This document shows, one piece after another, positions 32,485 to 52,475 of a stretch of 64,000 bases of DNA; within the stretch, counting starts at the first letter, position 1, and each line of letters opens with the position of its first letter. The DNA lies in contig CBDCJV010000002.1 in NCBI GenBank assembly GCA_965217895.1, forward strand, positions 3,040,001 to 3,104,000. The letters run 5' to 3'. This DNA comes from Waterburya sp. GTDB taxonomy: Bacteria > Cyanobacteriota > Cyanobacteriia > Cyanobacteriales > Xenococcaceae. The translations under genes and the position numbers were made by a program. A model generated the notes under the pieces. That model worked only from the letters and a program-made list of their open reading frames with translations, had not been told where the DNA came from and made no database searches.

Positions 32485-32564
32485 TAGGACTTACGCAGGT
32501 TAACGAGTTTTGCCCCCTAGTCCCCCAAACTTGGGGGATTTAGGGGGCGAGTGCGTAAGTCCTA
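32485..32564. mobile_element. 80-bp MITE-like element D
   Basis: Perfect 13-bp TIR TAGGACTTACGCA/TGCGTAAGTCCTA; internal CCCCC/GGGGG hairpin; related copy at 38243-38550. Confidence 0.8.
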
Positions 32565-38242: not shown

Positions 38243-38550
38243 TAGGACTTACGCACTCGCCCCCTAAATCCCCCAAGGCGAGCGACCCCCGCGCATGGTT
38301 CAGCAGTTTGCTTATGCCAGGGAACCCTTTCGACACTTTGCTCAACGGAGGATACCTCCGCAACGCAAGTGTCTCACCACCGCAACTGCTTCACCGCGTC
38401 GCCGTCAGGCGCAAGCGTCCGACACGAGGGCATCCCTAAACGGGAAGCCACGCGGACTTGGGAATGCGCGAGAGGGGGACTTTTAATTCTTGTTCCCCCA
38501 GATTTGGGGGGCTAGGGGGGGGCAAAACTCGTTAAACTGCGTAAGTCCTA
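38243..38550. mobile_element. MITE-like element D carrying a nested hairpin composite (38278-38472)
   Basis: Same 13-bp TIRs and subterminal arms as 32485-32564, inverted; GCGAGCGACCCC...GCGCGAG insert. Confidence 0.8.
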
Positions 38551-38581
38551 TTAAAATCAGCGAATAAAAAAAGACAATAAA

Positions 38582-38788
38582 ATGACTAATAATATTTTGA
38601 ATAAATGGTGGCAAGAATATCGTGAAGCCGATCGCTCTAGCAAACTACATCATGAGCTGATGACTCTGGTTCACGATCGGCCTGACACTGCACAGCGACT
38701 AGTTGATTTAGAAAAAATCAAACATCCAGGTCAATCTGAAAGTTGGTATTTAGACAAAGTAGTTTATGACCTCAGACGTGAAGCTTAA
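38582..38788 (+). CDS. Small hypothetical protein
   Basis: 68-aa ATG ORF with natural composition (AQRLVDLEKIKHPGQSESWYLDKVVYDL). Confidence 0.65.
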   Translation: MTNNILNKWWQEYREADRSSKLHHELMTLVHDRPDTAQRLVDLEKIKHPGQSESWYLDKVVYDLRREA

Positions 38789-38855
38789 AGAGTGTTGTTG
38801 ATTTAATGGATTTAATTTATCTAAGAGTGAGTTTGTAGTTCGTAGTCTGTCGTTT

Positions 38856-39214
38856 GAAGTCGAGAGACGCGTCGCCGAAGGGCGCAAGTCCACCCTCGAC
38901 AGTTTGCTCGCCCTCGACAACCAAGGGGTACTCCCCGCAGGTACCTCAACGGGGGGAATCCCTGCAACGGTTTTGCGAAGCAGCGCGGTCTTTGCAAGCG
39001 GAAATGCTGCTTGCGAAGCAGCTTATTCCACGCTTGCGGCGGGGGTTTCCCCCATAAGCGACTGCTGAGGGTGTCTCGCAACGGGTCACAGACAAGGCGC
39101 GTTTTGAGGCGAGGAAATGCTCTCGGTTAGAGAGCATATTCCACTCGCCTGTTGAGTGGGAAGCTTCCCACTCAACAGGCGCCGTCCGCAACGCAACTGT
39201 CTCGCAATCGACTT
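38856..39214. repeat. Nested array of GC-rich small dispersed hairpin repeats
   Basis: Outer stems AAGTCGA/TCGACTT and GACAGTTTGC/GCAACTGTC enclose several further hairpins; flanked by heptamer-like repeats. Confidence 0.8.
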
Positions 39215-39452
39215 GTTATAGTCGGATTTGAACTACAAACTACTAACTACCAACAAAGAACTTTTTTATTAACCAGTAGATTCAAATTTTTAGTTTTATC
39301 CTCACACACCTAATAAATGTCCTATTTAAACTAGTTTTATGGGACATTTTTTCTATATTCAAGATGTATGTTGTTTTTGGCTGGCTTAACCAAAATCTTC
39401 TGTAATGGTTAAATTTAAATATATAAAATTCATTCTGCTATATTAAAAATTT

Positions 39453-40040
39453 ATGCGTCAGAAAAAGAACAACAAAAAATCTGATTTTACAGCAGCTAGT
39501 ATTATAAGCCTGGTCAGTTTATTAGTTTTGATGTGGTTGATAGAGCTATTTAATTGGTCGCTTCCGCAGCTACAGTTTGACAATTACGGAATTCGCCCTA
39601 GGGATATTAATTGGTTGCCAGGAATCATCATTGCCCCTTTGCTTCACGGTTCTTGGTCGCATTTAATTGCCAACACGCCACCATTTATAATTTTTGGTGG
39701 CTTAGTTTCGCTCCAAGGCATGAGAATATTCTGGCTAGTTACTATTATATCCACGTTATTTAGTGGCTTGGGAGTTTGGTTATTTAGTCCCGAAAATGTA
39801 GTTACCGTGGGAGCTTCTGGCGTTATTTTTGGTTATTTGGGTTTTTTATTATTGCGTGGTTTGTTTGCTCGCAGTATAGGTGCAATCTTAATTTCCTTAA
39901 TAGTGGGCTTTCTTTATGGTGGGACACTCTGGGGAATATTGCCATCTAGCCCTAATATATCTTGGCAGGCACACTTATTTGGGCTTATGGGTGGTGTGTT
40001 GGCTGCCAGTTTGGGTCGTAAACGCAGTAGAGATAACTAA
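39453..40040 (+). CDS. Rhomboid family intramembrane serine protease
   Basis: LHGSWSHLIAN, GASG catalytic Ser, SWQAHLFG. Confidence 0.9.
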   Translation: MRQKKNNKKSDFTAASIISLVSLLVLMWLIELFNWSLPQLQFDNYGIRPRDINWLPGIIIAPLLHGSWSHLIANTPPFIIFGGLVSLQGMRIFWLVTIISTLFSGLGVWLFSPENVVTVGASGVIFGYLGFLLLRGLFARSIGAILISLIVGFLYGGTLWGILPSSPNISWQAHLFGLMGGVLAASLGRKRSRDN

Positions 40041-40051
40041 AAATTGATTCT

Positions 40052-41905
40052 CTATTTTTTAATTAGCTGGTTTAATTGACTGGCATTTAAAGAGCGGAGT
40101 AAATTGATAGGTAATGGTGGCTTACTCAAGCGTTTAATATAAGATTCTGTCAGATAGAATCTAAATTCATTTTGTTGTGCTAGGTGAGTTTTGAAAAAGG
40201 CTACACTCAGAACTTTTAAATACGAACGAGCTAAGGCAGGATCAAAACCCATTATATTTATAGGCAATTTAATTTCATCTGAATCTCCTTCAGCAATAAA
40301 GGAAAAATGAGTACTGTTTTTGACCAAAACCAAATATTTATTGTTTTTCGGCAGCCAGGTAAAAGGCTTTAGCTGCTCATCTAAAGCAGGAGCAAATATA
40401 TCTTTATCTCCAGCGATGATCAATAAGGGAGAATCAAACTGGCTCATTCCTGACTGGCTAAAAACTGGATTAGTTACAGGATTAATAGCGATCGCCGCAA
40501 CTATCCTTTGATCGCGCAAATTGGTATTGGGAACAGAATTATTTGCGCTCTGACATTGCCAAAATAGCGCGGGGTTTAGGTCTATTTGTTCTGGGCTTCC
40601 TATTTTTTGGCATTCTTTTTGCAGATGTTGCCAGTCCACCTTCGCTCCAGCGATCGCCATTGCCGTATAGCCACCTAGAGATTGACCGATAATTCCGACT
40701 CTTTGTAAATCGAGCTTACCTCGCCATGATTCCTCATTTTGAGACTTACGCTCCATCTCATCTAATAACCGAGTAACGATCTTAGGCTGCTCTATCCATT
40801 GATTATCCTTTGGAGGAGTATCTAAACCATTTAAGACTTCGTTTACCCGTTGGGCATTAGTACCAGGAAAATTGACCGCAGCTACCCCAAAGCCATAGGA
40901 AGCAAGATGCTCGGCTATATAGGTGAAGTTTTGCCAATTGGTATTTAACCCAGGAGCAACAACAACTACAGGGGCAGGTTTGTCGGTAGATATTGGCAAA
41001 TAAACTACTCCCTCAATCTGGCGATCGCTATCTGACTTAACAGTTATATTTTCTTTGCGCCACTTCTTGTCTCCTAAGTTGCTGAGATCTGCAAAAGTAT
41101 TTAGATCGAGAGAATTACCAGTTGCTACCTGCTCTTTTGCCTCTTGCCCTAATGTTTGGAAAACTTGTTCTGTATCTGCCAAAAGTTTTGTCGCTTCATC
41201 GACTGCCTCAACAATGCGGTTGGTATTTAATTTCAGCGTTTTGGTAGTGTAGTGGCGGAGAACACTGAGAATTGTTAGCCCTTCGGGTTCAGCAGACGCT
41301 AAAATCAAAGCGGCTCGCAAAGCTGGCTGATTTATCCTCTCAGAAGAATCTATAATTAAGCCGATTTCTCTGAGCAATTGTTTGCCAATCGGTAAATTGA
41401 GAAAAGTGCTTGTGGTCACAACGCTGATTTTAAAGCTGCGATTAAGTAAATCTTTTAATTGCGCTAAATCTTTTGGACTAAAGCGATCGGCGTAATAAGC
41501 AAAACCAGGAGTAATTTTACCTTTTTTAGCAAATGCTTCTAGATCGGCAATGGAAATATAAAACTCGCCCAAAACTCCATATTTAAAGGCGATGCGATCG
41601 GCACTTACAGCAGGTAAAATCCAGACGGAAGTTAAAAAACTACAGCTAAATAAAGCTATGAAAGAAGCTTGCCAAATTTTTCTTGGCTTCAACCTTATCG
41701 AACGAAAAGCAGCTAGTTGACCAACGGTCACAGCAGCGCGAGGTTGCGTTGCGGAGGTTTCCTCCGTTGAGCAAACTTCGTAAGAAGACTCCGCCCGTTT
41801 AAAAGTCCCCGTGCTGTTCCGTTTAGGAACAGCTTCATGGGGGACGTGGCGGAGTAATCTGTAACTGGCTGCTGACTTAATTTTTCTGCTTTTTCTTTTG
41901 CCCAC
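40052..41905 (-). CDS. DUF1400 alpha/beta hydrolase; N-terminus contains a repeat-derived insert
   Basis: GQSLGG nucleophile elbow, STHFSF; start uncertain because ~41705-41875 is a hairpin array. Confidence 0.8.
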   Translation of the reverse strand: MGKRKSRKIKSAASYRLLRHVPHEAVPKRNSTGTFKRAESSYEVCSTEETSATQPRAAVTVGQLAAFRSIRLKPRKIWQASFIALFSCSFLTSVWILPAVSADRIAFKYGVLGEFYISIADLEAFAKKGKITPGFAYYADRFSPKDLAQLKDLLNRSFKISVVTTSTFLNLPIGKQLLREIGLIIDSSERINQPALRAALILASAEPEGLTILSVLRHYTTKTLKLNTNRIVEAVDEATKLLADTEQVFQTLGQEAKEQVATGNSLDLNTFADLSNLGDKKWRKENITVKSDSDRQIEGVVYLPISTDKPAPVVVVAPGLNTNWQNFTYIAEHLASYGFGVAAVNFPGTNAQRVNEVLNGLDTPPKDNQWIEQPKIVTRLLDEMERKSQNEESWRGKLDLQRVGIIGQSLGGYTAMAIAGAKVDWQHLQKECQKIGSPEQIDLNPALFWQCQSANNSVPNTNLRDQRIVAAIAINPVTNPVFSQSGMSQFDSPLLIIAGDKDIFAPALDEQLKPFTWLPKNNKYLVLVKNSTHFSFIAEGDSDEIKLPINIMGFDPALARSYLKVLSVAFFKTHLAQQNEFRFYLTESYIKRLSKPPLPINLLRSLNASQLNQLIKK

Positions 41906-42014
41906 TAAAAAACTTTGATTTACCTTGCTTTTGGATCGTTACCACTTGTTCATGTGTGTATACAAACCCCTAATAATTAGATCTTACGCCAGCTTGGGGC
42001 TGCTCGTCAAAAGA

Positions 42015-42386
42015 CTACTTTTTCTTAAGAAGATTTATTAATGCTCCATCAGCAGCACCAGAAACTGCATTGCCGACAAACGAACCATTGCCGAGAACTG
42101 CCCCTGTAGCTGCGTTTGTGCCTGCGCCAACCGCACTATCCTGCAGCAAACTATGATTTTTTTTACTGGAATTTTGGTGAGTTGCGTTAACCACAGCACC
42201 AGTTGCTGCACCGCCGACAGCGTTACCGACTGCCGAACCATTACCTAATATTTTACCAGTGACCACGTTAGCACCAGTACCTACTCCTAAATCTTGCAAA
42301 ATATTAGCACTGGCAGGTCTGGTATTCAATAAAGTGCTAACGGCAAGAACGACTGGCAAGACTAAGGCTTTTATGGTTCTGTTCAT
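42015..42386 (-). CDS. Small secreted glycine-zipper-like protein with internal duplication
   Basis: Signal peptide (PASA); two copies of LQD..VG.G.N..TG.(I/V)LGNGS.VGNAV.GAA.GA. Confidence 0.75.
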   Translation of the reverse strand: MNRTIKALVLPVVLAVSTLLNTRPASANILQDLGVGTGANVVTGKILGNGSAVGNAVGGAATGAVVNATHQNSSKKNHSLLQDSAVGAGTNAATGAVLGNGSFVGNAVSGAADGALINLLKKK

Positions 42387-42574
42387 GATTTACCTCGTTC
42401 AAAATACTTCAACACTTCATTTTTAGTTTAAGAACCGCAAATGACATACAGGTGTCACTTAATATGTCAATTATCTAAAATTTGGCTAGACAATTAAAAT
42501 TAATCAGCTTCAAAAACTCAAGCAATGGCGATCGCGCTTGCCATGCCGTCAAGCTTATCGCCCTCAAACATCTC

Positions 42575-42588
42575 GTATTCTAATATAC
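42575..42588 (+). promoter_or_regulatory. Possible NtcA box upstream of the purine permease
   Basis: GTA-TTCTAATA-TAC (GTA-N8-TAC) about 110 bp before the ATG; no clean TAN3T -10 element at canonical spacing. Confidence 0.3.
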
Positions 42589-42700
42589 AAAAAATTAGCA
42601 GCCAAAAGAATATATATAAAAGAGTATACAGTATCCGATATGTCAACTCCTAAGTGTTGCGATCGCTTAATTACCTCAACTTAATTACTAACATATTCAG

Positions 42701-44174
42701 ATGACTCACACAGATGTTCATCAAGAAGGTCATAGCCTGGTAGAATTCCGTTCCCGTCTATTGTATGGCTTAAATGATCGACCTCCATTCAAAGACTCTA
42801 TTTTCGTAGGCTTACAGCACGTTTGCGCTATTTTCATTCCGATTGTAACTCCAGGCTTGCTGATTACGGAGGCATTAGGACTCGATCCAGCTAGAGCTAG
42901 TTATATTTTGGGTATGGCTTTATTCGTTTCAGGGCTTGGTACCTTTATTCAAGTAAATCGATTAGGACCGATTGGCTCTGGTTTGCTTGCCGTTCAAGGA
43001 ACCAGCTTTGCCTTTGTCACGCCAGTTTTGGCAATTGTGTCTACCTCTTTAGCAGCAGGTAAAACGCCCGAAGCAACGCTATCATTAATTTTGGGGCTTT
43101 GTTTCTTGGGATCTTTTATTCCAATCGTCCTCAGTCGCTTTTTGCATCTCACTCGCCAGATTTTCACTCCCCTAGTAACTGGGACTGCCGTGACGCTGAT
43201 TGGATTAACCTTAATCAAGGTTGGTATGTTTTACATGGCAGGGGGCGGGAAAGGCACAGGCGATCGCCCAAACCAACCCAAACAGCCCTCAAGCGTTCGG
43301 TAGTTTGCAGAATTGGGCATTGGCAGTTTCTGTCTTTGCCATTGTCGGAGTTTGCAGTGCTAGTGCTAATCGTTATCTGCGCATGAGTTCAGTGATTATT
43401 GGCTTATTTGTTGGTTTTATTGTTTCGATCTTTTTAGGGATTGCTGACTTTAGCAAGTTAGAAACCCTGCCACTGGTAAATGTTCCGATTCCGTTCCGAT
43501 TTGGTCTAGACTTCAACTTTGTGACATTCATCTCCTTCGCTATCATTTACATCGCTCTTACCCTGGAAGTTTTGGGAGATATTACAGCGACATCAATGGT
43601 TTCATCAGAGCCGATTGAAGGATCGATCTATATCCGCAGGCTCAAAGGAGGCATTTTAGGGGATGGAGTCAATTCGCTGATTGCTTCCATTTGCGGCTCA
43701 TTTCCGATCGTTACCCCTGCTCAGAATAATGGGATTATTCAGCTTACGGGTGTGGGCAGTCGCTATGTAGGCTACTATATTGCTGTTATTCTAATGCTTC
43801 TTGGTTTATTTCCTCTGGTGGGAGGCGTGTTGCTAGCCATTCCCACTTCTGTATTTGGGGGAGCAGTCATGCTGATGTTTGGTACGGTAGCGGTAGCGGG
43901 TTTTAACATCCTACGCTCCATTGACCTTGATAACCGTGCCTTTATTATTCTGGCAATTTCTTTGGCAGCCGGTTTGGGTGTTACTTTTCTTCCAGAAGCA
44001 CTCGAACATTTCCCTGCTGCCGTTCGGAGTGTTTTAGAGTCAGGAATTGCGACAGGTTCTATTTGCGCCCTAGTTCTCAATTTAGTAATGCCGAGAGTGC
44101 CAGAGGAAACCCTAGCGGTGGCAACACATCCAACTGCTGAAGAATCTACCGTACCAATAGAATCAAAAGAATAG
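42701..44174 (+). pseudogene. NCS2 xanthine/uracil permease, frameshifted near 43240-43255
   Basis: ORF1 has GLQHVCA and QGTSFAF; ORF2 has the NAT motif QNNGIIQLTG; the halves join across GCAGGGGGCGGGAAAGG. Confidence 0.8.
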
Positions 44175-44218
44175 CACTGGACACTTCTGGCTTTATGTTG
44201 AACTATTCATGATGCTGA

Positions 44219-44249
44219 TGTCCTTAAGACCGTATATATCTTAAGGACA
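44219..44249. terminator. Hairpin between convergent genes
   Basis: Perfect 11-bp stem TGTCCTTAAGA/TCTTAAGGACA. Confidence 0.5.
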
Positions 44250-44254
44250 GTTAC

Positions 44255-45526
44255 TCAAGATACTTTGGCGATCGCTCTTTCTAATATAGTCGCAGCCTCG
44301 TCAACTTCGGCGGACGAAACTATTAAAGGAGGAACAAAACGCAATACTTTTGTACCTGCGGGGGCAAGGAGTAAACCCTCTTCCATTGCTGCTTTAACTA
44401 AATTAATCGAGGTCAGATCGAGATCGGCACGTAATTCGATGCCGTTGATCAAGCCCCAACCCCGCACCTCAGTAAACAAGGAGGGATATTTTTTGGCGAT
44501 CGCTCTTAGCCTGACTCTTAACTGTTCGCCTCTTGCCTGAACATTGTGCAAAATACCTTCATTTTCTATAGTCTTCAATACGGCTAAAGCAGATGCACAG
44601 GCGAAAGGATTGCCGCCAAAGGTACTGGCGTGATTACCTGGCTCAAATGCTGCACAGGAATCTTTACAGAGCATTGCACCAATGGGAATGCCTCCTGCTA
44701 AACCTTTGGCACTAGTTAAAATATCTGGTTCAACCCCCAACTTCTCGTAACCCCAAAGCTTGCCACTTCTGCCAACGCCGACTTGGACTTCATCAAATAC
44801 CAACAGAATATTATTTTCATCACAGATTTTCCGTAGCTTGAGGAAATATTCTAACTCTCCTGGACGCACGCCGCCTTCACCCTGTAAAGGTTCGATCATA
44901 ATGCCTACTACGCGACTTAAAGTACCTTCATCGAGATCGGCGATCGCATTTTCCACTGCCGTAATATCGTTGTAGGGAACATAGGCAAATCCAGTGGGTA
45001 ATGGCGTAAAGCCCTTTTGATATTTTTCTTGTCCTGTGGCGGTAACGGTTGCTAAAGTACGCCCGTGAAAACTAGCTTTTGCGGTGAGAATAATTGGCTG
45101 TTCAACTTTATCTAAAACAGTGTGGGCATACTTTCTGACTAACTTAATTGCTGCTTCGTTAGCTTCTGCCCCAGAATTGCAGAAAAATACTTTATCCATA
45201 CAGGAATTATTAACTAACCATTCTGCTAATTCTCCCTGTTCGGGAATATAATACAGATTAGAGACGTGGTGTAGCTTGTTGATTTGTTCTGTTACCGCAG
45301 CAATCAAAGCAGGATGAGCATGACCCAAGGTACAGGTAGCAATCCCTGCCACAAAATCAAGATACTCTTTTCCAGTTGTATCCCAAAGACGACAGCCCTC
45401 TCCACGCTCAATCGCAATGGGAAAACGACCATAGGTTGGCATCACGCTTTTATCAAAGCGATCGCGATCAAATTCAGTATTCTGCAAGATAGTTAGAGAA
45501 TTGTCTATAGGTGGGGATTGAACCAT
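44255..45526 (-). CDS. argD: Acetylornithine aminotransferase
   Basis: NSGAEANEAAIK, FHGRT, DEVQVGVGR, SAKGLAGG, HASTFGGNP; probable start MVQSPP. Confidence 0.93.
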   Translation of the reverse strand: MVQSPPIDNSLTILQNTEFDRDRFDKSVMPTYGRFPIAIERGEGCRLWDTTGKEYLDFVAGIATCTLGHAHPALIAAVTEQINKLHHVSNLYYIPEQGELAEWLVNNSCMDKVFFCNSGAEANEAAIKLVRKYAHTVLDKVEQPIILTAKASFHGRTLATVTATGQEKYQKGFTPLPTGFAYVPYNDITAVENAIADLDEGTLSRVVGIMIEPLQGEGGVRPGELEYFLKLRKICDENNILLVFDEVQVGVGRSGKLWGYEKLGVEPDILTSAKGLAGGIPIGAMLCKDSCAAFEPGNHASTFGGNPFACASALAVLKTIENEGILHNVQARGEQLRVRLRAIAKKYPSLFTEVRGWGLINGIELRADLDLTSINLVKAAMEEGLLLAPAGTKVLRFVPPLIVSSAEVDEAATILERAIAKVS

Positions 45527-45687
45527 TAGTTGCTCCTGGATAAAAATTATTTTTTGAGAAAAATACATTTAAAATGGCAGTTGTTATCTGATATCACTCT
45601 TGATTGTTTTGTTCAAAAATCAGACCTGCATCTTAATGTAATCAATTTTAGGCACAACTGTTGTCAAAAATCAGCAGCCAATTTTAC

Positions 45688-46758
45688 ATGTATAGTTATA
45701 CATTTGAGGAAAAGTATGGTCGTTTACGAAAAGAGTTAATACGGGGAGGTGTCGTATTAGCGAGTATTTTATTAATTGGGACTCTTTGGTACTGGAAAGT
45801 TGAGAAGTGGACTTTTATTGAATCAGCCTACATGACCGTAATTACCCTATCCACGGTGGGGTATTCTGAGACTCATCCATTAGGAGAAAGAGGGCGATTA
45901 TTCACCATTACTCTAATTTTAATGGGGTTATTCACCATTGCTTATATCGTTAATCGTTTTACCGAAGCTTTAATTCAGGGATATTTTCAAGAAGGCATCA
46001 AACTAAGACAGGAGAAGAGTTTGATTGAATCTCTAGATCAACACTATATTGTTTGCGGTTTTGGGCGTACTGGTCGTCATGTCGCCCGTGAATTTTTAGC
46101 CGAGGGTATTCCCTTTATTGTTATTGACGACAACATCGAAGAAGTAGAAGAAATTAAACAGTTAGGATACACGGTGATTTTAGGTGACGCTACTTTAGAT
46201 GAATCCTTGGTGCGTGCCAAAATTGATCGAGCAATTTGTATGGTAACGGCACTGCCTTCAGATGCTGAAAATCTCTATACAGTTTTGTCAGCCAAAACCC
46301 TTAATCCGCGTATCAGAGCGATCGCTCGTGCCAGTAATGAAGAAGCGGTACAAAAGTTACAGAGGGCGGGGGCAGATGCGGTAGTTTCCCCTTACATTAC
46401 AGGGGGAAAAAGACTGGCAGCAGCAGCATTAAGACCTCAGGTAATGGACTTTGTTGATGGTATTATTACAGGGTCTAATCGTTCTTACTATCTCGAAGAA
46501 TTTCTCATTGATTCTGAAGCCTGTCCTTTTGTGGGTCAAAGTTTGCGAGAGGCTAAACTGCGATCGCAGACAGGGGCTTTAGTATTGGCAATTCGCCGTT
46601 TTGATGGCAACTTAATTGCTGGTCCAACGGGAGATACTCTTATTTTAGAACGAGACGCTTTAATCTGTATGGGAACAGCAGATCAGCTACGAGATTTAAA
46701 CAAAATTTTAGGTCCAATTAATTCAACTAATGCCCTGAGATTGCCGAAAAATCAATAA
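45688..46758 (+). CDS. Potassium channel with RCK (TrkA-N/C) domains
   Basis: TLSTVGYS selectivity filter; CGFGRTG Rossmann motif; TrkA-C domain. Confidence 0.9.
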   Translation: MYSYTFEEKYGRLRKELIRGGVVLASILLIGTLWYWKVEKWTFIESAYMTVITLSTVGYSETHPLGERGRLFTITLILMGLFTIAYIVNRFTEALIQGYFQEGIKLRQEKSLIESLDQHYIVCGFGRTGRHVAREFLAEGIPFIVIDDNIEEVEEIKQLGYTVILGDATLDESLVRAKIDRAICMVTALPSDAENLYTVLSAKTLNPRIRAIARASNEEAVQKLQRAGADAVVSPYITGGKRLAAAALRPQVMDFVDGIITGSNRSYYLEEFLIDSEACPFVGQSLREAKLRSQTGALVLAIRRFDGNLIAGPTGDTLILERDALICMGTADQLRDLNKILGPINSTNALRLPKNQ

Positions 46759-46774
46759 AACCAATTATTTAGTT

Positions 46775-47446
46775 ATGACGCATATTTTGGTCGTAGAAGA
46801 TGAAGCTAAGTTGGCTCAGTTTATTAAGATGGAATTAGAGTTTGAAGACTATCAGGTAACCCATGCCGCCGATGGCTTTGCTGGCTTGTCTGCTGCTAGA
46901 GAAATTCAACCAGATTTGATTTTGCTTGATTGGATGTTGCCAGGAATCTCAGGACCCGAAATTTGCCGTCGTCTACGTCAGACAGGAGACAAAGTACCAA
47001 TTATTATGCTCACTGCCAAAGATGAAGTCAGCGATCGCGTTTCGGGTTTGGACGCTGGGGCTGATGATTATGTGGTTAAGCCTTTTAGCATCGAAGAGTT
47101 ACTGGCTAGAGTTAGAGCTAGTTTACGTCGTGAGCAAGAAGAGGAAACAGATTTAATTCAGTTTAGCAATCTTACCCTCAATCGTTCTACCCGTGAAGTA
47201 TTTCGCGATCGACGCTCTATTGAATTAACCGCAAAAGAGTTCGATCTACTAGAGTATTTGCTTTCCCATCCTCGTCAAGTATTAACCCGCGATCAAATTT
47301 TAGAAAGAGTTTGGGGTTACGATTTTATGGGGGACTCTAACATTATTGAAGTTTATATTCGCTACCTGCGCCTGAAGCTAGAAGAACAACAAGAACAGCG
47401 TCTGATTCAAACTGTACGCGGTGTGGGATATGTTTTGCGGGAGTAG
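46775..47446 (+). CDS. OmpR-family response regulator
   Basis: REC (DWMLPG, KPF) plus winged helix (EVYIRYLRLKL, TVRGVGY). Confidence 0.93.
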   Translation: MTHILVVEDEAKLAQFIKMELEFEDYQVTHAADGFAGLSAAREIQPDLILLDWMLPGISGPEICRRLRQTGDKVPIIMLTAKDEVSDRVSGLDAGADDYVVKPFSIEELLARVRASLRREQEEETDLIQFSNLTLNRSTREVFRDRRSIELTAKEFDLLEYLLSHPRQVLTRDQILERVWGYDFMGDSNIIEVYIRYLRLKLEEQQEQRLIQTVRGVGYVLRE

Positions 47447-47660
47447 TAATCATTGACCATTGATCAATAATTAAGTTGTAGGGTGGGCAGGAAAAATAAT
47501 TATGTTCTCAATCATTAAAGAATCGCTACCAATGCCCACCAAAGATATTCAGTCTCACTCAGCATCGAGATAATCAGTAATCAGTAATTTAGTTACCTGG
47601 ACTACCGAATTGTCTTTAAACTATAAAGAGAGATAATAGAAAAGATTATTTAAAAAAACT

Positions 47661-48656
47661 ATGGATTTAATTACCCTTGAAAGTATCTTAGACAATGCCT
47701 CCTTTGGAGTATTGTTAGTTACAATGCTGATTTATTGGACTGGGGCAGCTTTTCCCAATCTTCCTTATTTAAGCACTTTAGGAACTACGGGAATGGCGAT
47801 CGCTAACCTGTGTATGGCAACTTTACTAGGTTCTCGCTGGCTAGAAGCTGGTTATTTTCCCCTCAGCAATCTTTATGAATCCTTGTTCTTTTTGGCTTGG
47901 GGTGTGACGGCAATTCACTTTATTGCCGAAAAAATGAGTCGTAGCCGTTTGGTTGGTGTCGTTACTAGCCCTGTAGCAATGGGTATTACCGCATTTGCAG
48001 CCCTAAGTTTGCCTCTAGAAATGCAGGCATCTGCGCCGTTAGTACCTGCCTTAAAATCTAATTGGCTGATGATGCACGTTAGCGTGATGATGCTCAGTTA
48101 TTCTACTTTAATGGTAGGTAGCGCGATCGCGATCGGCTTTTTGATCATCACTCGTGGGCAAAAAGTTGAACTAAAAGGTAGTTCAGTTGGGACTGGTAGT
48201 TTCCGCGAGAGGGTAAAGCAAAAAACTGTCAATACTCCCGATCCAGACAAAGTTTTTGCCAGTACTTCTGGCAATACGGCAGTGCTTGATTTACCAAAGA
48301 CAATAACAAAAACAGCTACTCTTTCTCCAGAACGTCTCACTTTGGCTGATACCTTAGACAATATTAGCTATCGCGTTATTGGTTTAGGGTTTCCTTTATT
48401 AACTATTGGCATTATTGCTGGGGGAGTCTGGGCAAACGAAGCCTGGGGTTCATACTGGAGTTGGGATCCTAAAGAAACTTGGGCGTTCATTACTTGGTTG
48501 GTTTTTGCGGCATATCTCCACGCCAGAATTACCCGCGGCTGGCAGGGAAGAAAGCCTGCAATTTTGGCTGCTGTGGGCTTTGTGGTTGTCTGGGTGTGCT
48601 ATTTAGGAGTTAACTTACTAGGTCAGGGATTACATTCCTATGGTTGGTTTTTGTAA
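47661..48656 (+). CDS. ccsA: Cytochrome c biogenesis protein CcsA (system II)
   Basis: [21 protein letters not shown] motif; MMHV; GLHSYG. Confidence 0.95.
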
Positions 48657-48708
48657 AGCAGCAATGGGCAGACAGTAGACTTCTTGCACAAATCACAACC
48701 AACTACTT

Positions 48709-48934
48709 TACGCTTAGTGTGAATTAGCTTCGTTTAAATTCGTTGGTTTTTAGCTTTTAGCAAACGCTGGAGCGTTTCGCCGTTGCCAAGCAACGTCGGC
48801 GTTCTCCAGAACGCGCTCTTAGCCACTATGAAAAAGTATAAAGTTTGACTTACTTAGCTACGTAAATACCAAATTTTAATAAACAGAACGTTCAATAGAG
48901 CCATTTTAAGGTTTTTCAATTCACACTAGACGTA
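48709..48934. mobile_element. MITE-like element E (copy 1) with heptamers and a hairpin insert
   Basis: TIR TACGCTTAGTGTGAATT / AATTCACACTAGACGTA. Confidence 0.65.
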
Positions 48935-48939
48935 CTTTA

Positions 48940-49194
48940 CTAAGAGGCATTGGTGACACAAGGTTTGACTAAATCTTCTAATTGTTGCGAAATTACTTTG
49001 TTGTCTACATTCAGATTAGTTTTATTTTGAGGGTGATCTCTGATGCTTTTTTGCTGATGTGCCATTTCATTAAACCACGATCGCATGATTGCCAATCTGT
49101 TTTCACTATCCAGTCTAAAATGCTGCGAACTCTTCGATCTCAGTACATTTGACAAGTTGTACTTTTTTAACTTGTCACCAATGCTTATTACCAA
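48940..49194 (-). CDS. Hypothetical protein
   Basis: 84-aa ORF only; no recognisable motif. Confidence 0.3.
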   Translation of the reverse strand: MVISIGDKLKKYNLSNVLRSKSSQHFRLDSENRLAIMRSWFNEMAHQQKSIRDHPQNKTNLNVDNKVISQQLEDLVKPCVTNAS

Positions 49195-49324
49195 ACTGTA
49201 CCAGGGTGTACCTTACCAAACCGAGAATCGCTATACTATTCGGCAATCAATATAAAGATAAATGTATAGCAATGATGATTAGTGAGTAAATTGGGAATAA
49301 TCAGCTAGTTTGAAAAGATAATTT

Positions 49325-49382
49325 TGGCTATATATAGAGTAATATAAGCTCAATAATATTTTTATGACGCTACATATAGTTA
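49325..49382 (+). promoter_or_regulatory. Tandem NrdR boxes
   Basis: TGGCTATATATAGAGT (49325-49340) and ACGCTACATATAGTTA (49367-49382) resemble acaCwAtATaTwGtgt; 42 bp apart, upstream of nrdA. Confidence 0.65.
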
Positions 49383-49440
49383 ATTTTGGGTTATAGTATA
49401 AACTCAGATCGGCTAAAAAAATTTCAGTCTCACATAACGT

Positions 49441-51933
49441 ATGCAGCCAACCCTACCTTTAACCAGCAACTCCGTATCTAACCCTACTTCAGATTCAGGT
49501 AGATCATCAACTACACTTGACCAACAAATCGATCTGGCTGAGAATTTAGAAAATAAATCATCTTCTCTACCAATCCCTGAAACAGACACTTCAAGCATCC
49601 AAGTGGTTAGAAGAGACGGTTCTTTGACAAACTTGAATATTACCAAGATTCGTTCGGTGGTGGAATGGGCTTGTGCCGAGCAAGATGTTAACTCGATCAC
49701 CCTGGAAGCAGGCTTAACTACCAGACTTCGCAATGGTGTAACCACTAGAGATATTCAAGATAACTTAATTGATTGCGCTTTGGGTATGTGTAGCCCCAGC
49801 GAACCTGAATGGCGATATGTAGCGGGTAGGCTGCATATTTGGAGTTTGTGGAAGGATACTCAGGTAGCCCGTGGGTTTGGCTATGGAGATTATGCTAGGG
49901 CAGTTCAATTTCAGATAGATAAGAAACGCTACGATCGCCATATTTTAAAATATTCTACGGCTGAACTAACCGAAGCTGGTAGTTGGATTAATCCTGAATG
50001 GGACAAAGATTATGATTATGCAGGGGCGGTTTTATTGACTAAACGCTATCTATTAACGGATGAACTTCCTCAAGAGGCTTTTCTTACCTGCGCTTTGTTG
50101 CTAGCTGCTAATGAAAAGCCAGAAATTAGATTAGCCGTTGCTAAAAAGTTTTATCGAGCGATCGCAGGGCGGAAAATTTCTTTGGCAACACCAATTCTAG
50201 CTAACTTAAGAGTACCGAATGGCTCATTAAGTAGCTGCTTTATTATTGCCATGGATGATAATTTAGAAAGCATTTTTGAGGAGATTACTAACGCAGCAAG
50301 AATTTCTAAAAATGGTGGTGGCGTTGGGGTAAACGTCAGCCGTATCCGCGCTACTGGTAGCTGGGTAATGGGGAAAGATAATGCTTCTGGAGGAGTTATT
50401 CCCTGGGTTAAGCTGCTCAACGATACAGCGATCGCCGTTAACCAGGGTGGGCGTAGAGCAGGTGCAGTTACTGTTGGTTTAGATATCTGGCATTTAGATG
50501 TACCTGAGTTTTTGGAAATGCAGGCGGAAAATGGCGATCGCCGTCGCAAAGCCTATGATGTTTTTCCTCAGTTGATAATTGTCGATGAGTTTATGCGTCG
50601 AGTAGAGGCAAAAGAACTCTGGACGCTAGTAGATCCTTATGAGGTTAAAGAGAAATTAGGCATTGACTTAGCCGAGCAATGGGGTGAAAATTTTAACGCG
50701 GTTTATGCTCGCATAGAAGCGGAACTAGCGAGCGACCCCCTAAAGGGTTCGACAGTTCCTACAACGGAGGAAACCTCCGCAACGGACTGTCTCACCGCGT
50801 CGCCGACAGGCTCAAGACAAAGGCTTAAGCCGCATGTACGCGCGAGTGATAAGAAAATTAAGCTATATAAGCAAGTAGATGCCCGCGAATTGTTTAAGCA
50901 TATTATGCGGAGTCAGGTTGAAACGGGAATGCCTTATCTAGCGTTCAAAGATACTATCAATCGAGCAAATCCGAATAAGCATGAAGGCTATATTCCTGGA
51001 GTAAACCTTTGCTGTGAGAGCTTTAGTAACGTCAAGCCAGGATTAGAGGCTCACTGCTGTAATTTAGTATCTCTTAATCTGGCTAATGTAGAGGAGGCAG
51101 AAATAGCGGAGATGTCTCAGCTAGCCGTCAGAATTTTAGACAATACCATCGATATAACTAAGCCTCCTTTTACCGATAGCAAAACCCACAACGATAAATA
51201 TCGCACTATCGGCGTAGGCTGTATGGGATTAGCTGACTGGTTGGCTAAACGCCACCTGACTTATGAAGGCCTAAAGGAAATCAGTTGTCTGTTTGAAGAG
51301 GTAGCTTACTGGTGTACTGCTGCTTCAATGGAATTAGCCAAAGATCGCGGTGCCTATGGAGCTTTTGCGGGTAGCGAATGGAGTCTGGGTAAATTGTTAG
51401 GCTCAAAGTCCTTAGATGAGATTCTCAATATTGCTCAGGATAAAGAACGCTGGGTGCAGCTAGCTCAAGATGTGCAAACTTACGGGATTCGTAATTCTCA
51501 TATTACAGCGATCGCGCCTAATACCTCGTCTTCTTTAGTGCAGGGCTGTACTGCCAGTATTTTGCCCGTCTATAGCAAGTTTTTTTACGATAAATGGGCA
51601 AAAGGAACAGTACCGATTGCTCCACCTTTTATTCAAGAATGTTTTTGGTTCTATCGTGAAAATAAAAGCTTAGATCAGAAAATTGTAGTCAAAGCTGTGG
51701 CGGTAATGCAGCAGTGGATTGATACAGGCATCTCTATGGAGTTACTGTTTAACCTTAATCAAGGAGTATATTTCCCAGATGAACCAGAAAGAGCAGTAAA
51801 AGCCAAAGACATTTTTGAAACTTTAGTAATGGCGTGGAAAGAAGGCTGTAAAGCTGTTTACTATGTCCGCACTGTGCAAAAAGACGATTTCAAAGAGTCT
51901 TCTAGCGAAGGCTGTGCAGCTTGCGCAAATTAA
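49441..51933 (+). CDS. nrdA: Ribonucleoside-diphosphate reductase class I alpha subunit with ATP cone
   Basis: VVRRDG ATP cone, LSSCF, NLCCE, IAPNTSSS, VYYVR, C-terminal CAAC. Confidence 0.95.
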   Translation: MQPTLPLTSNSVSNPTSDSGRSSTTLDQQIDLAENLENKSSSLPIPETDTSSIQVVRRDGSLTNLNITKIRSVVEWACAEQDVNSITLEAGLTTRLRNGVTTRDIQDNLIDCALGMCSPSEPEWRYVAGRLHIWSLWKDTQVARGFGYGDYARAVQFQIDKKRYDRHILKYSTAELTEAGSWINPEWDKDYDYAGAVLLTKRYLLTDELPQEAFLTCALLLAANEKPEIRLAVAKKFYRAIAGRKISLATPILANLRVPNGSLSSCFIIAMDDNLESIFEEITNAARISKNGGGVGVNVSRIRATGSWVMGKDNASGGVIPWVKLLNDTAIAVNQGGRRAGAVTVGLDIWHLDVPEFLEMQAENGDRRRKAYDVFPQLIIVDEFMRRVEAKELWTLVDPYEVKEKLGIDLAEQWGENFNAVYARIEAELASDPLKGSTVPTTEETSATDCLTASPTGSRQRLKPHVRASDKKIKLYKQVDARELFKHIMRSQVETGMPYLAFKDTINRANPNKHEGYIPGVNLCCESFSNVKPGLEAHCCNLVSLNLANVEEAEIAEMSQLAVRILDNTIDITKPPFTDSKTHNDKYRTIGVGCMGLADWLAKRHLTYEGLKEISCLFEEVAYWCTAASMELAKDRGAYGAFAGSEWSLGKLLGSKSLDEILNIAQDKERWVQLAQDVQTYGIRNSHITAIAPNTSSSLVQGCTASILPVYSKFFYDKWAKGTVPIAPPFIQECFWFYRENKSLDQKIVVKAVAVMQQWIDTGISMELLFNLNQGVYFPDEPERAVKAKDIFETLVMAWKEGCKAVYYVRTVQKDDFKESSSEGCAACAN
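50728..50846 (+). mobile_element. Hairpin composite element inserted in frame in nrdA
   Basis: GCGAGCGACCCC...GCGCGAG, shared with intergenic copies at 38278-38472 and 52055-52247. Confidence 0.8.
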
Positions 51934-51949
51934 TGTTTGTTGACTATCT

Positions 51950-52475
51950 TACGTTTAGTGTGAATTAAAAGGGTTCAATTTTCTCTTTTTATCGGAAATT
52001 TAACTTTGAAAACCAGAATATAATACTGGGGGAACTTTCCACTACTACCCCACTCTCGCGCATTCCCAAGCCAGTCCGTTGCGGGTCTGTGACCCGTTGA
52101 AGGAACTGGCGTTTGCGCCTGACGGCGACGCGGTGAGACAGTTGCGGTGGTGAGACACTTGCGTTGCGGGTCTATGACCCGTTGAGCAAAGTGTTGAAAG
52201 GTTTCACCGGCATAAGCAAACTGTCGAACCCTTTAGGGGTCGCTCGCCTGTTGGGGACGTTACGACCCTCCCCAAAGCCGAGGCAACGTGGGGCGAATGT
52301 ATTCGCCCCTTTAAGTGCCGTCTTCCGTAAACATTAACCCTAACTTTTGCCTTGCCAAATAATCTCTAATCATCTAGATAAATAATTGAATTTGCTTTTT
52401 GCAAAATCTTGTTACTCTTTGAAATATTAGGCTTTTATAAGCTGATCATAAAAAAGCTAATTCACATCAGACGTA
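51950..52475. mobile_element. MITE-like element E (copy 2) carrying the hairpin composite at 52055-52247 (minus strand)
   Basis: TIR TACGTTTAGTGTGAATTA / TAATTCACATCAGACGTA; same family as 48709-48934. Confidence 0.65.

Follow-up and report, generated by a model that had tools for sequence, protein, structure and literature searches.

What are the short hairpins that lie nested within one another in a stretch of the Waterburya sp. genome, do they move, and by what route? The window, by which we mean the whole 64,000-nucleotide stretch analysed, is G000:C2:3040001-3104000, G000 being the Waterburya source genome (5.29 Mb, 39% GC, 5798 HIP1 sites on the chromosome). Coordinates are those of the window unless prefixed G000:C2. 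The sequence-only reading of this DNA had proposed a recurrent hairpin module with fixed internal loops that inserts into its own copies and into a carrier, keeps its structure over its sequence, and represents an undescribed mobile system with no recognisable enzyme in the window. Mobility, nesting, conservation of structure and the lack of an enzyme in the window held up on analysis; the novelty of the system had been overstated. The module is one of several families of rod hairpins, 45-58 nt long, in G000 and its relative G017 (A, B, C, D48 and E48 below). The same two genomes also contained 21-24-nt hairpins resembling small dispersed repeats (SDRs).

Precise and repeated insertion of the hairpin units

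The hairpin units insert precisely, recently and repeatedly, and are real mobile DNA that is actively spreading. In nrdA the carrier at 50.7 kb lies in frame within the gene, a position that the sequence-only reading had missed. At this point 16 of 18 relatives from the genus are empty and two (G017 and G007) contain the 45-nt carrier alone; G000 is longer by 120 nt without a stop codon, having the 45-nt carrier, a 57-nt B unit and a 21-nt hairpin that replaces 3 bases. The gene in G000 retains an open frame of 830 amino acids with its catalytic motifs, and the genome has no second match of this kind; compared with its G017 counterpart it shows 112 synonymous and 44 non-synonymous codon differences. 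The insertion point is where the alignment breaks for most solved homologues and where one homologue carries additional residues.

The main comparison was with G017, which is ~92% identical and of which 2.39 Mb out of 5.0 Mb was compared. At 39 of the 40 loci that could be mapped by both flanks (out of 179 element loci in G000) the element was absent from G017, absence being a coarse label because many loci belong to larger indels. Clean single insertions relative to G017 measured 48, 51, 57, 93 and 144 nt. Contigs of closer strains skip 38278-38473 (with 3 other letters in its place), 38327-38376, the block at 41.7 kb and the carrier at 52.1 kb. For module copy 1, the joint 38326-38377 was found in all four runs from close-strain contigs, and empty copies of its site occur elsewhere in the genome. 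Some insertions, in the nrdA series and in the close-strain contigs, replaced 2-3 target bases. Empty orthologous sites in the nrdA relatives, in G017 and in closer strains thus bear out the proposed mobility. The features of the window are as follows.

38243..38550, no strand assigned: outer host repeat with a 13-bp terminal inverted repeat, multi-copy in the genome, containing carrier copy 1
38278..38473, + strand: carrier C, a 45-nt unit (45 nt in 8 of 8 simple copies) grown to 196 nt through nested insertions
38288..38393, + strand: unit of B type lying inside carrier C, its internal loop being the variant TTAT/CACC; skipped in the contig of a close strain
38327..38376, + strand: module copy 1 (core 38330-38375), which puts 50 nt in the inner stem of the B-type unit where 3 nt would stand
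38415..38459, + strand: further 45-nt hairpin unit at the AA/GGG site of carrier C, delimited against the sequence of simple carriers
38891..39078, + strand: stack of A-type units (51-52 nt, inserted before CAA) in a region absent from G017; it includes an SDR-like hairpin of 23 nt (38920-38942) and, at 38935-38978, a degenerate module
39107..39154, - strand: E48 sister element, a 4-nt tail and a 44-nt rod with a fixed length of 48 nt and highly diverse, covarying stems
41722..41865, + strand: D48 carrier grown to 144 nt (48+51+45), the 144-nt insertion being absent from G017
41736..41786, - strand: 51-nt unit containing module copy 2 (41738-41781)
49441..51933, + strand: nrdA, ribonucleotide reductase large subunit, host gene
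50728..50847, + strand: carrier copy 2, the in-frame 120-nt insertion in nrdA (amino acids 430-469)
50738..50794, + strand: B57 unit containing module copy 3 (50749-50793)
50817..50837, + strand: 21-nt SDR-like hairpin replacing 3 carrier bases (net +18)
52054..52247, - strand: carrier copy 3 (194 nt), downstream of nrdA, skipped in close strains
52068..52112, - strand: module copy 4, a bare 45-nt unit of a type common in Nostocales records, at the carrier's AA/GGG site
52152..52197, - strand: module copy 5, nested in a B-type unit within the carrier

The carrier is therefore present three times, as had been proposed, and modules nest in each other and in the carrier. The five modules lie where they had been placed, their inner CAA-stem6-loop3-stem6'-CAAC parts starting at 38343(+), 41769(-), 50762(+), 52099(-) and 52184(-). 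A covariance model scored all five cores at 33-69 bits, two of the five having belonged to its training set, and recovered the degenerate module as a sixth. The sequence-only reading had overlooked that the module at 41.7 kb occupies a different, 48-nt carrier, and had not seen the 48-nt sister element at 39107-39154(-). The D48 insertion falls in the 5' part of the open reading frame (ORF) 40052-41905(-), which encodes a DUF1400 hydrolase and whose true start is uncertain.

The outer inverted-repeat host recurs, with almost nothing inserted, at 32485-32564, and at 48761-48815 close strains skip one more short GC-rich hairpin insertion. A xanthine/uracil permease (42701-44174) is split into two overlapping ORFs by a frameshift or a sequencing error.

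Fold, targets and distribution of the families

A strict scan for the module motif gave 45 matches in the 5.29-Mb genome and one in a single block-shuffled copy; a relaxed scan returned 74 rows, some of them by chance. Copies chosen by the outer stem alone, so that pairing in the inner stem was not selected for, numbered 34 in G000, 18 in the compared part of G017 and none in the shuffle. Among the 16 distinct inner stems so obtained, five of the six positions were Watson-Crick paired in 14-16 stems, and position 2, where a mismatch is tolerated, was so paired in 10. Swaps were C-G/G-C, G-C/A-T and G-C/T-A. The converse set, 39 copies from public records picked on the inner stem plus two window copies, had 98.4% of its cells paired, a level reached by 0 of 500 shuffles and compared with 29-46% in slid controls. 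Two-sided changes occurred at 10 of its 14 pairs (7 of 8 outer, 3 of 6 inner); relatedness inflates these covariation controls, yet up to four pair types were found at single positions. Covarying stems in both sets support the proposal that structure is kept over sequence.

The module folds into a rod consisting of a 5-bp stem, one bulged base, a 3-bp stem, an internal loop with CAA on both sides, a 6-bp stem and a 3-nt loop. Folded as DNA it had stability z-scores of -3.2 to -4.7, and the hairpins overall ranged from -3.2 to -7.1. No curated Rfam model matched the hairpins.

Target rules, of 1-5 bases each, were registered family by family, within the lengths that the search patterns for A, B, C, D48, E48 and SDR-like units can recover. 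In the 21 contexts of A units (51-52 nt) the next bases were CAA 19 times and TAA twice, and B units (57-58 nt) were followed by C in all 18. G preceded C carriers (45 or 51 nt) in 29 of 31 contexts as registered. D48 was preceded by TGAC, which is D's own 3' end, in 18 of 24 contexts and followed by a pyrimidine in all 24; simple D units were 48 nt long in 8 of 8. The target motif is one-sided, and in two families it echoes the element's own end. Hairpin flanks had no regular target duplication: none was seen in 15/21 A, 19/24 D and 16/31 C contexts, and B had a 2-nt C overlap in 11/18.

A length-blind scan for CAA-bounded hairpins peaked at 18 nt (46 hairpins, corresponding to the module's inner stem) and at 48 nt (26 hairpins, with about ten different basal stems). 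E48 is flanked on both sides by a shared NT/CAA core. In 22 of 31 rows, not all of them independent, its second-last base was identical to the one at the same place in the left flank, compared with 8.7 expected; no match was found at -3 or -4 in these rows. This indicates that donor and target share a 5-base core or that the foot of the stem pairs with the target. Departures of the G-T/A-C kind numbered 10 in E48 stems, and every one favoured the strand whose rod ends in the 4-nt 3' tail; the module had no such strand bias.

CAA is where A and E48 units insert, and the module's internal loop offers two CAA copies, so that the elements serve as targets for one another; this yields the Russian-doll nesting. 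An E48 inside a module's loop was observed in genome G127. Relative to its carrier, a nested unit can point either way. An apical 17-21-nt hairpin was likewise seen in either orientation within similar D48/E48 units (G000:C2:4466476 and several E48 copies).

After removal of duplicates, 28 of 30 GC-rich indels in ORFs had lengths divisible by three (3n), as did 29 of 50 intergenic GC-rich indels compared with 68 of 181 intergenic AT-rich ones (p=0.015; simple ORF calling may mislabel some indels). This excess outside ORFs suggests that the 3n rule is partly intrinsic to the elements. With unit lengths mostly 3n, insertions in genes keep the frame, and the hairpins are a steady source of in-frame peptide insertions. 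Elements were found in ORFs in 29 cases, some of which are spurious ORFs or copies of an insertion sequence (IS). A transposase-like ORF with an in-frame E48 is present in several copies (G000:C2:174590-175468, 206282-207160 and 1933309-1934187), so hairpins also spread as IS passengers.

An exact 20-nt pattern was present in at least 117 stretches; among the 80 listed, most were from Nostocales, and Pleurocapsa, Waterburya and Gloeocapsopsis were also among the matches listed. The covariance model found at least 118 copies in Nostoc, at least 96 in Waterburya, at least 39 in Gloeocapsopsis and at least 19 in Pleurocapsa (one genome each, at most 150 candidates being scored). It matched 37 of 141 genomes of the order. 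Eighteen genomes had 10 or more matches (hereafter high-copy genomes), 17 of them in families f1, f7 and f18, and the module was present in 7/7, 6/7 and 5/6 genomes of f7, f18 and f1, respectively. The D48 hairpin was found in 2 of 201 genomes, both of Waterburya's genus. No module match was found in viral contigs or plasmids. A single pattern match in Ktedonosporobacter was set aside, as the covariance model gave 0 matches there among the 150 of 2998 candidates that it scored. In G138:C2, a genome of another family, module stacks lie inside apparent non-ribosomal peptide synthetase/polyketide synthase genes of large size.

Candidate enzymes and routes of movement

As the sequence-only reading had stated, the window contained no mobilising enzyme: among 50 ORFs scanned, only fragments of IS6 and IS5 type were related to mobile DNA. 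The G000 genome as a whole contained one frameshifted and one intact RAYT (transposase associated with repetitive extragenic palindromic, REP, sequences), a broken copy, two atypical IS110 genes, one tnpB, and three identical group II intron reverse transcriptases (RTs) plus other RT pieces. Rep_1, Y2 and IscB (RRXRR) were not found in G000, in scans in which no positive control responded. No autonomous copy was found, nor any gene consistently bracketed by elements. The correlation with RAYT/HUH, RT and IS110 genes that had been suggested was carried out and did not single out an enzyme: no tested class tracked the high-copy genomes, although draft assemblies may conceal genes and related genomes are not independent. 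RAYT-model matches occurred in 16 of 18 high-copy genomes. Some Y1 HUH match was present in all 18 high-copy genomes, but also in most others. A likeness of the E48 junction to a rolling-circle nick site found no support from an enzyme; the available part of PMC7072734 gives a rolling-circle origin sequence without the nick position.

Several of these loci are of note in themselves. The intact RAYT (G000:C2:3520726-3521277, -) has a GTAG REP within the gene and REPs on its flanks, and adjoins the broken copy and a toxin-antitoxin-like pair. Its locus fits subclass 2.4 as outlined in part of PMC6006769. RAYT loci were flanked by GTAG REPs, not by hairpin units. The two atypical IS110-family genes (G000:C2:2845696-2846928, +, and 3922313-3923641, -) barely reach the Pfam cut-off and have a common upstream region. 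Three near-identical group II introns, whose RT has an HNH domain in a 516-aa frame, lie at G000:C2:35415(+), 276248(-) and 2702025(-), all in the same E48 variant; this 2.2-kb intron is the sole large cargo in the elements. G017 lacks both E48 and intron at the one mappable intron site and has intron-free E48 copies elsewhere. A divergent 549-aa RT that is not of the group II intron type (G000:C2:1232462-1234111, -) is possibly defence-associated.

A 45-bp unit cannot circularise as double-stranded DNA. This, together with the conserved structure, the absence of regular duplication and the one-sided motif, suggests single-strand transfer of the HUH type. The target motif and its echo of the element's own end follow the logic of the IS200/IS605 and RAYT HUH enzymes as set out in part of PMC6006769, where guide-to-target pairing by the IS200/IS605 TnpA resembles the second-last-base match of E48. 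In the available text of PMC3119063, terminal-only 52-bp derivatives of IS605 appear mobile in Haloquadratum. We therefore tentatively favour, at somewhat below an even chance, non-autonomous hairpins that move as single-stranded DNA in folded form, with a HUH (Y1/RAYT-like) strand-transfer enzyme acting in trans to cut and rejoin it. The intermediate would be single-stranded and folded, and DNA rather than RNA. Its target would be picked through base pairs formed with the stem foot, and its enzyme would be of the HUH class. Lineages of 3n length would prevail because the host tolerates them in genes.

A number of results weigh against this route. No enzyme is linked to the hairpins by co-distribution. 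RAYT-model matches in 144 of 161 genomes make presence uninformative, the subtype of the intact G000 RAYT was found in 6/18 high-copy genomes vs 61/141 overall, and the IS91-type Y2 enzyme was found in 0/18, the 5 of 161 genomes that have Y2 being all module-negative. In G000 and in 2.39 Mb of G017, no element ends enclosed a transposase gene. The module showed no leading/lagging-strand bias (35/61), as judged on a chromosome with a poorly defined origin and weak GC skew. Replacement of 2-3 target bases is not predicted by a single cut-and-join step. The E48 departures favour the strand with the 3' tail, so its conserved 4-mer differs from the 5' guides of REP and IS608, and the differing target rules of the families mean that more than one enzyme may act.

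A rival route is copying through RNA. The rods would be stable small RNAs copied into DNA breaks by an RT that jumps template via 1-5 bases of microhomology. The 2008 SDR paper of Elhai et al. reportedly proposed an RNA intermediate. The NT/CAA core on both E48 sides, the replaced target bases (which fit template switching), the three intact group II intron RTs inside an E48, and the mostly single orientation of E48 copies in ORFs (9/10, four being copies of one IS) are consistent with it. However, RTs at E<=1e-15 were found in 12 of 18 high-copy genomes and so missing from six, compared with 116 of 141 genomes overall with one; the module lacks G-U bias on either strand; and nested units face both ways in their carrier. 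Related introns in other genomes have unrelated exons, so E48 is probably just a homing site, a simpler account than E48 carrying the intron. We consider retro-mobility unlikely. A host process, in which a conserved nuclease, ligase or polymerase releases hairpins and copies them by template switching at forks or breaks, seems to us possible if doubtful. The module closely follows the three families f7, f18 and f1 while every mobile enzyme tested is patchy or universal, and junctions have variable microhomology and small deletions. The fixed unit lengths with diverse sequence nevertheless point to a structure-measuring factor, and no candidate gene was identified.

The two intact atypical IS110 genes in G000 raise the case of a recombinase swapping strands at a short shared core; IS110/IS1111 elements typically have short cores and prefer REP-like hairpins. 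The atypical protein occurred in 8/18 high-copy genomes and 35/161 overall, a 45-bp double-stranded circle is sterically implausible, and some hairpin families share a single base with their target, so we regard this case as very unlikely. Least probable, and barely credible, is that the host selects the hairpins as RNA structures (terminators or stabilisers) and that gene conversion, not mobility, has spread them. Their folds are stable and many copies are intergenic, but the empty-site data contradict it (39/40 loci not shared with the close relative). The copies in frame within genes and within each other and the lack of an Rfam match also weigh against it.

Beside the HUH route that we favour, the rods could conceivably, though improbably, be minimal self-guided elements, in which a 45-57-nt hairpin is at once binding site, cargo and guide and is moved by a lineage-conserved, structure-specific integrase. 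An altered stem foot would then retarget insertion, 3n lineages would keep adding peptide loops to proteins, and E48 may carry the 2.2-kb intron as cargo. The locus offers handles for testing: exact unit boundaries, per-family target rules, the three-step in-frame nrdA series, covariation of stem foot with target, from which retargeting can be predicted, and clear-cut presence or absence from one cyanobacterial family to another. An enzyme that places a 45-nt hairpin precisely would also interest tool builders.

Relation to known systems

Like PATE/IS200-IS605 and REP-RAYT (REPIN) elements, the Waterburya units are defined by hairpins and lack a transposon-type terminal inverted repeat (portions of PMC6006769, PMC3119063, PMC3116915 and PMC3733652). 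They also share with these systems the absence of regular target duplication and a short one-sided target motif, the last four bases of D48 being its usual target. In the same sources these known elements have two ends, whereas the Waterburya element is a single rod. A version bearing tnpA/tnpB was not found in G000 or the compared part of G017, and what the hairpins have in common with the single tnpB element is one word of 5 bases. A tetranucleotide guide 5' of the hairpin foot fits D48, fits E48 for two bases and on the other strand, and was not present for A and B. REP/REPIN sequences differ further in their GTAG/CGTC tag and RAYT co-distribution, which the units lack; GTAG REPs serve here as targets. 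The SMR elements of Haloquadratum, compared by their description in part of PMC3119063, are also short, lack target duplication, insert into the palindromes of others and have a mobilisation termed 'enigmatic', but are archaeal, 80-110 bp long and bounded by terminal inverted repeats. Unlike miniature inverted-repeat transposable elements (DDE type), the hairpin units have neither transposon-like terminal inverted repeats nor a target duplication of fixed length. Rickettsia palindromic elements are hairpin repeats of about 100-150 bp that are tolerated in frame in protein genes and are not nested. The Waterburya units are likewise in-frame hairpins, but shorter and nested.

The nearest likeness is to SDRs. 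Elhai et al. reportedly described these repeats of Nostocaceae in 2008 (Genome Res 18:1484) as eight named families said to be 21-27 nt long, with nesting, heptamer-repeat hosts and compensatory changes. The Waterburya units are also tiny, structured, dispersed and precisely inserted, and show the same nesting, heptamer-repeat hosts and compensatory changes. SDR5 is a 21-mer between bases 3 and 4 of HIP1, according to passages in citing papers (PMC4390886, PMC5861425, PMC13756078, PMC2884548), and its function is still called unknown in the available part of PMC13756078 (2026). Side-hairpin insertions in the Nostoc tRNA-Leu intron are mentioned in a passage of PMC4476775. In G000 and G017, SDR5-like hairpins of 21 and 24 nt likewise split HIP1 sites after base 3, in frame in genes (at G000:C2:713052 and 2267647, and in G017). 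With SDRs of like kind described in 2008 and an SDR5-like 21-mer at the published position in G000, 'undescribed system' was too strong. How such elements, the smallest mobile ones in bacteria, move has been a question in the field since that year.

The Waterburya module units measure 45-58 nt compared with 21 nt for SDR5, and only the nested 21-24-mers fit the SDR length. Units of the Waterburya type are abundant in Pleurocapsa, Waterburya and Gloeocapsopsis, whereas a passage of PMC5861425 reports no SDRs outside Nostocaceae. The 2008 publication and its supplement may already describe longer units; our comparison draws on passages that cite it. The module resembles an SDR in its working but, given its length, is not placed among the eight SDR families, and its per-family target rules and target-to-stem covariation were worked out in the present analysis.

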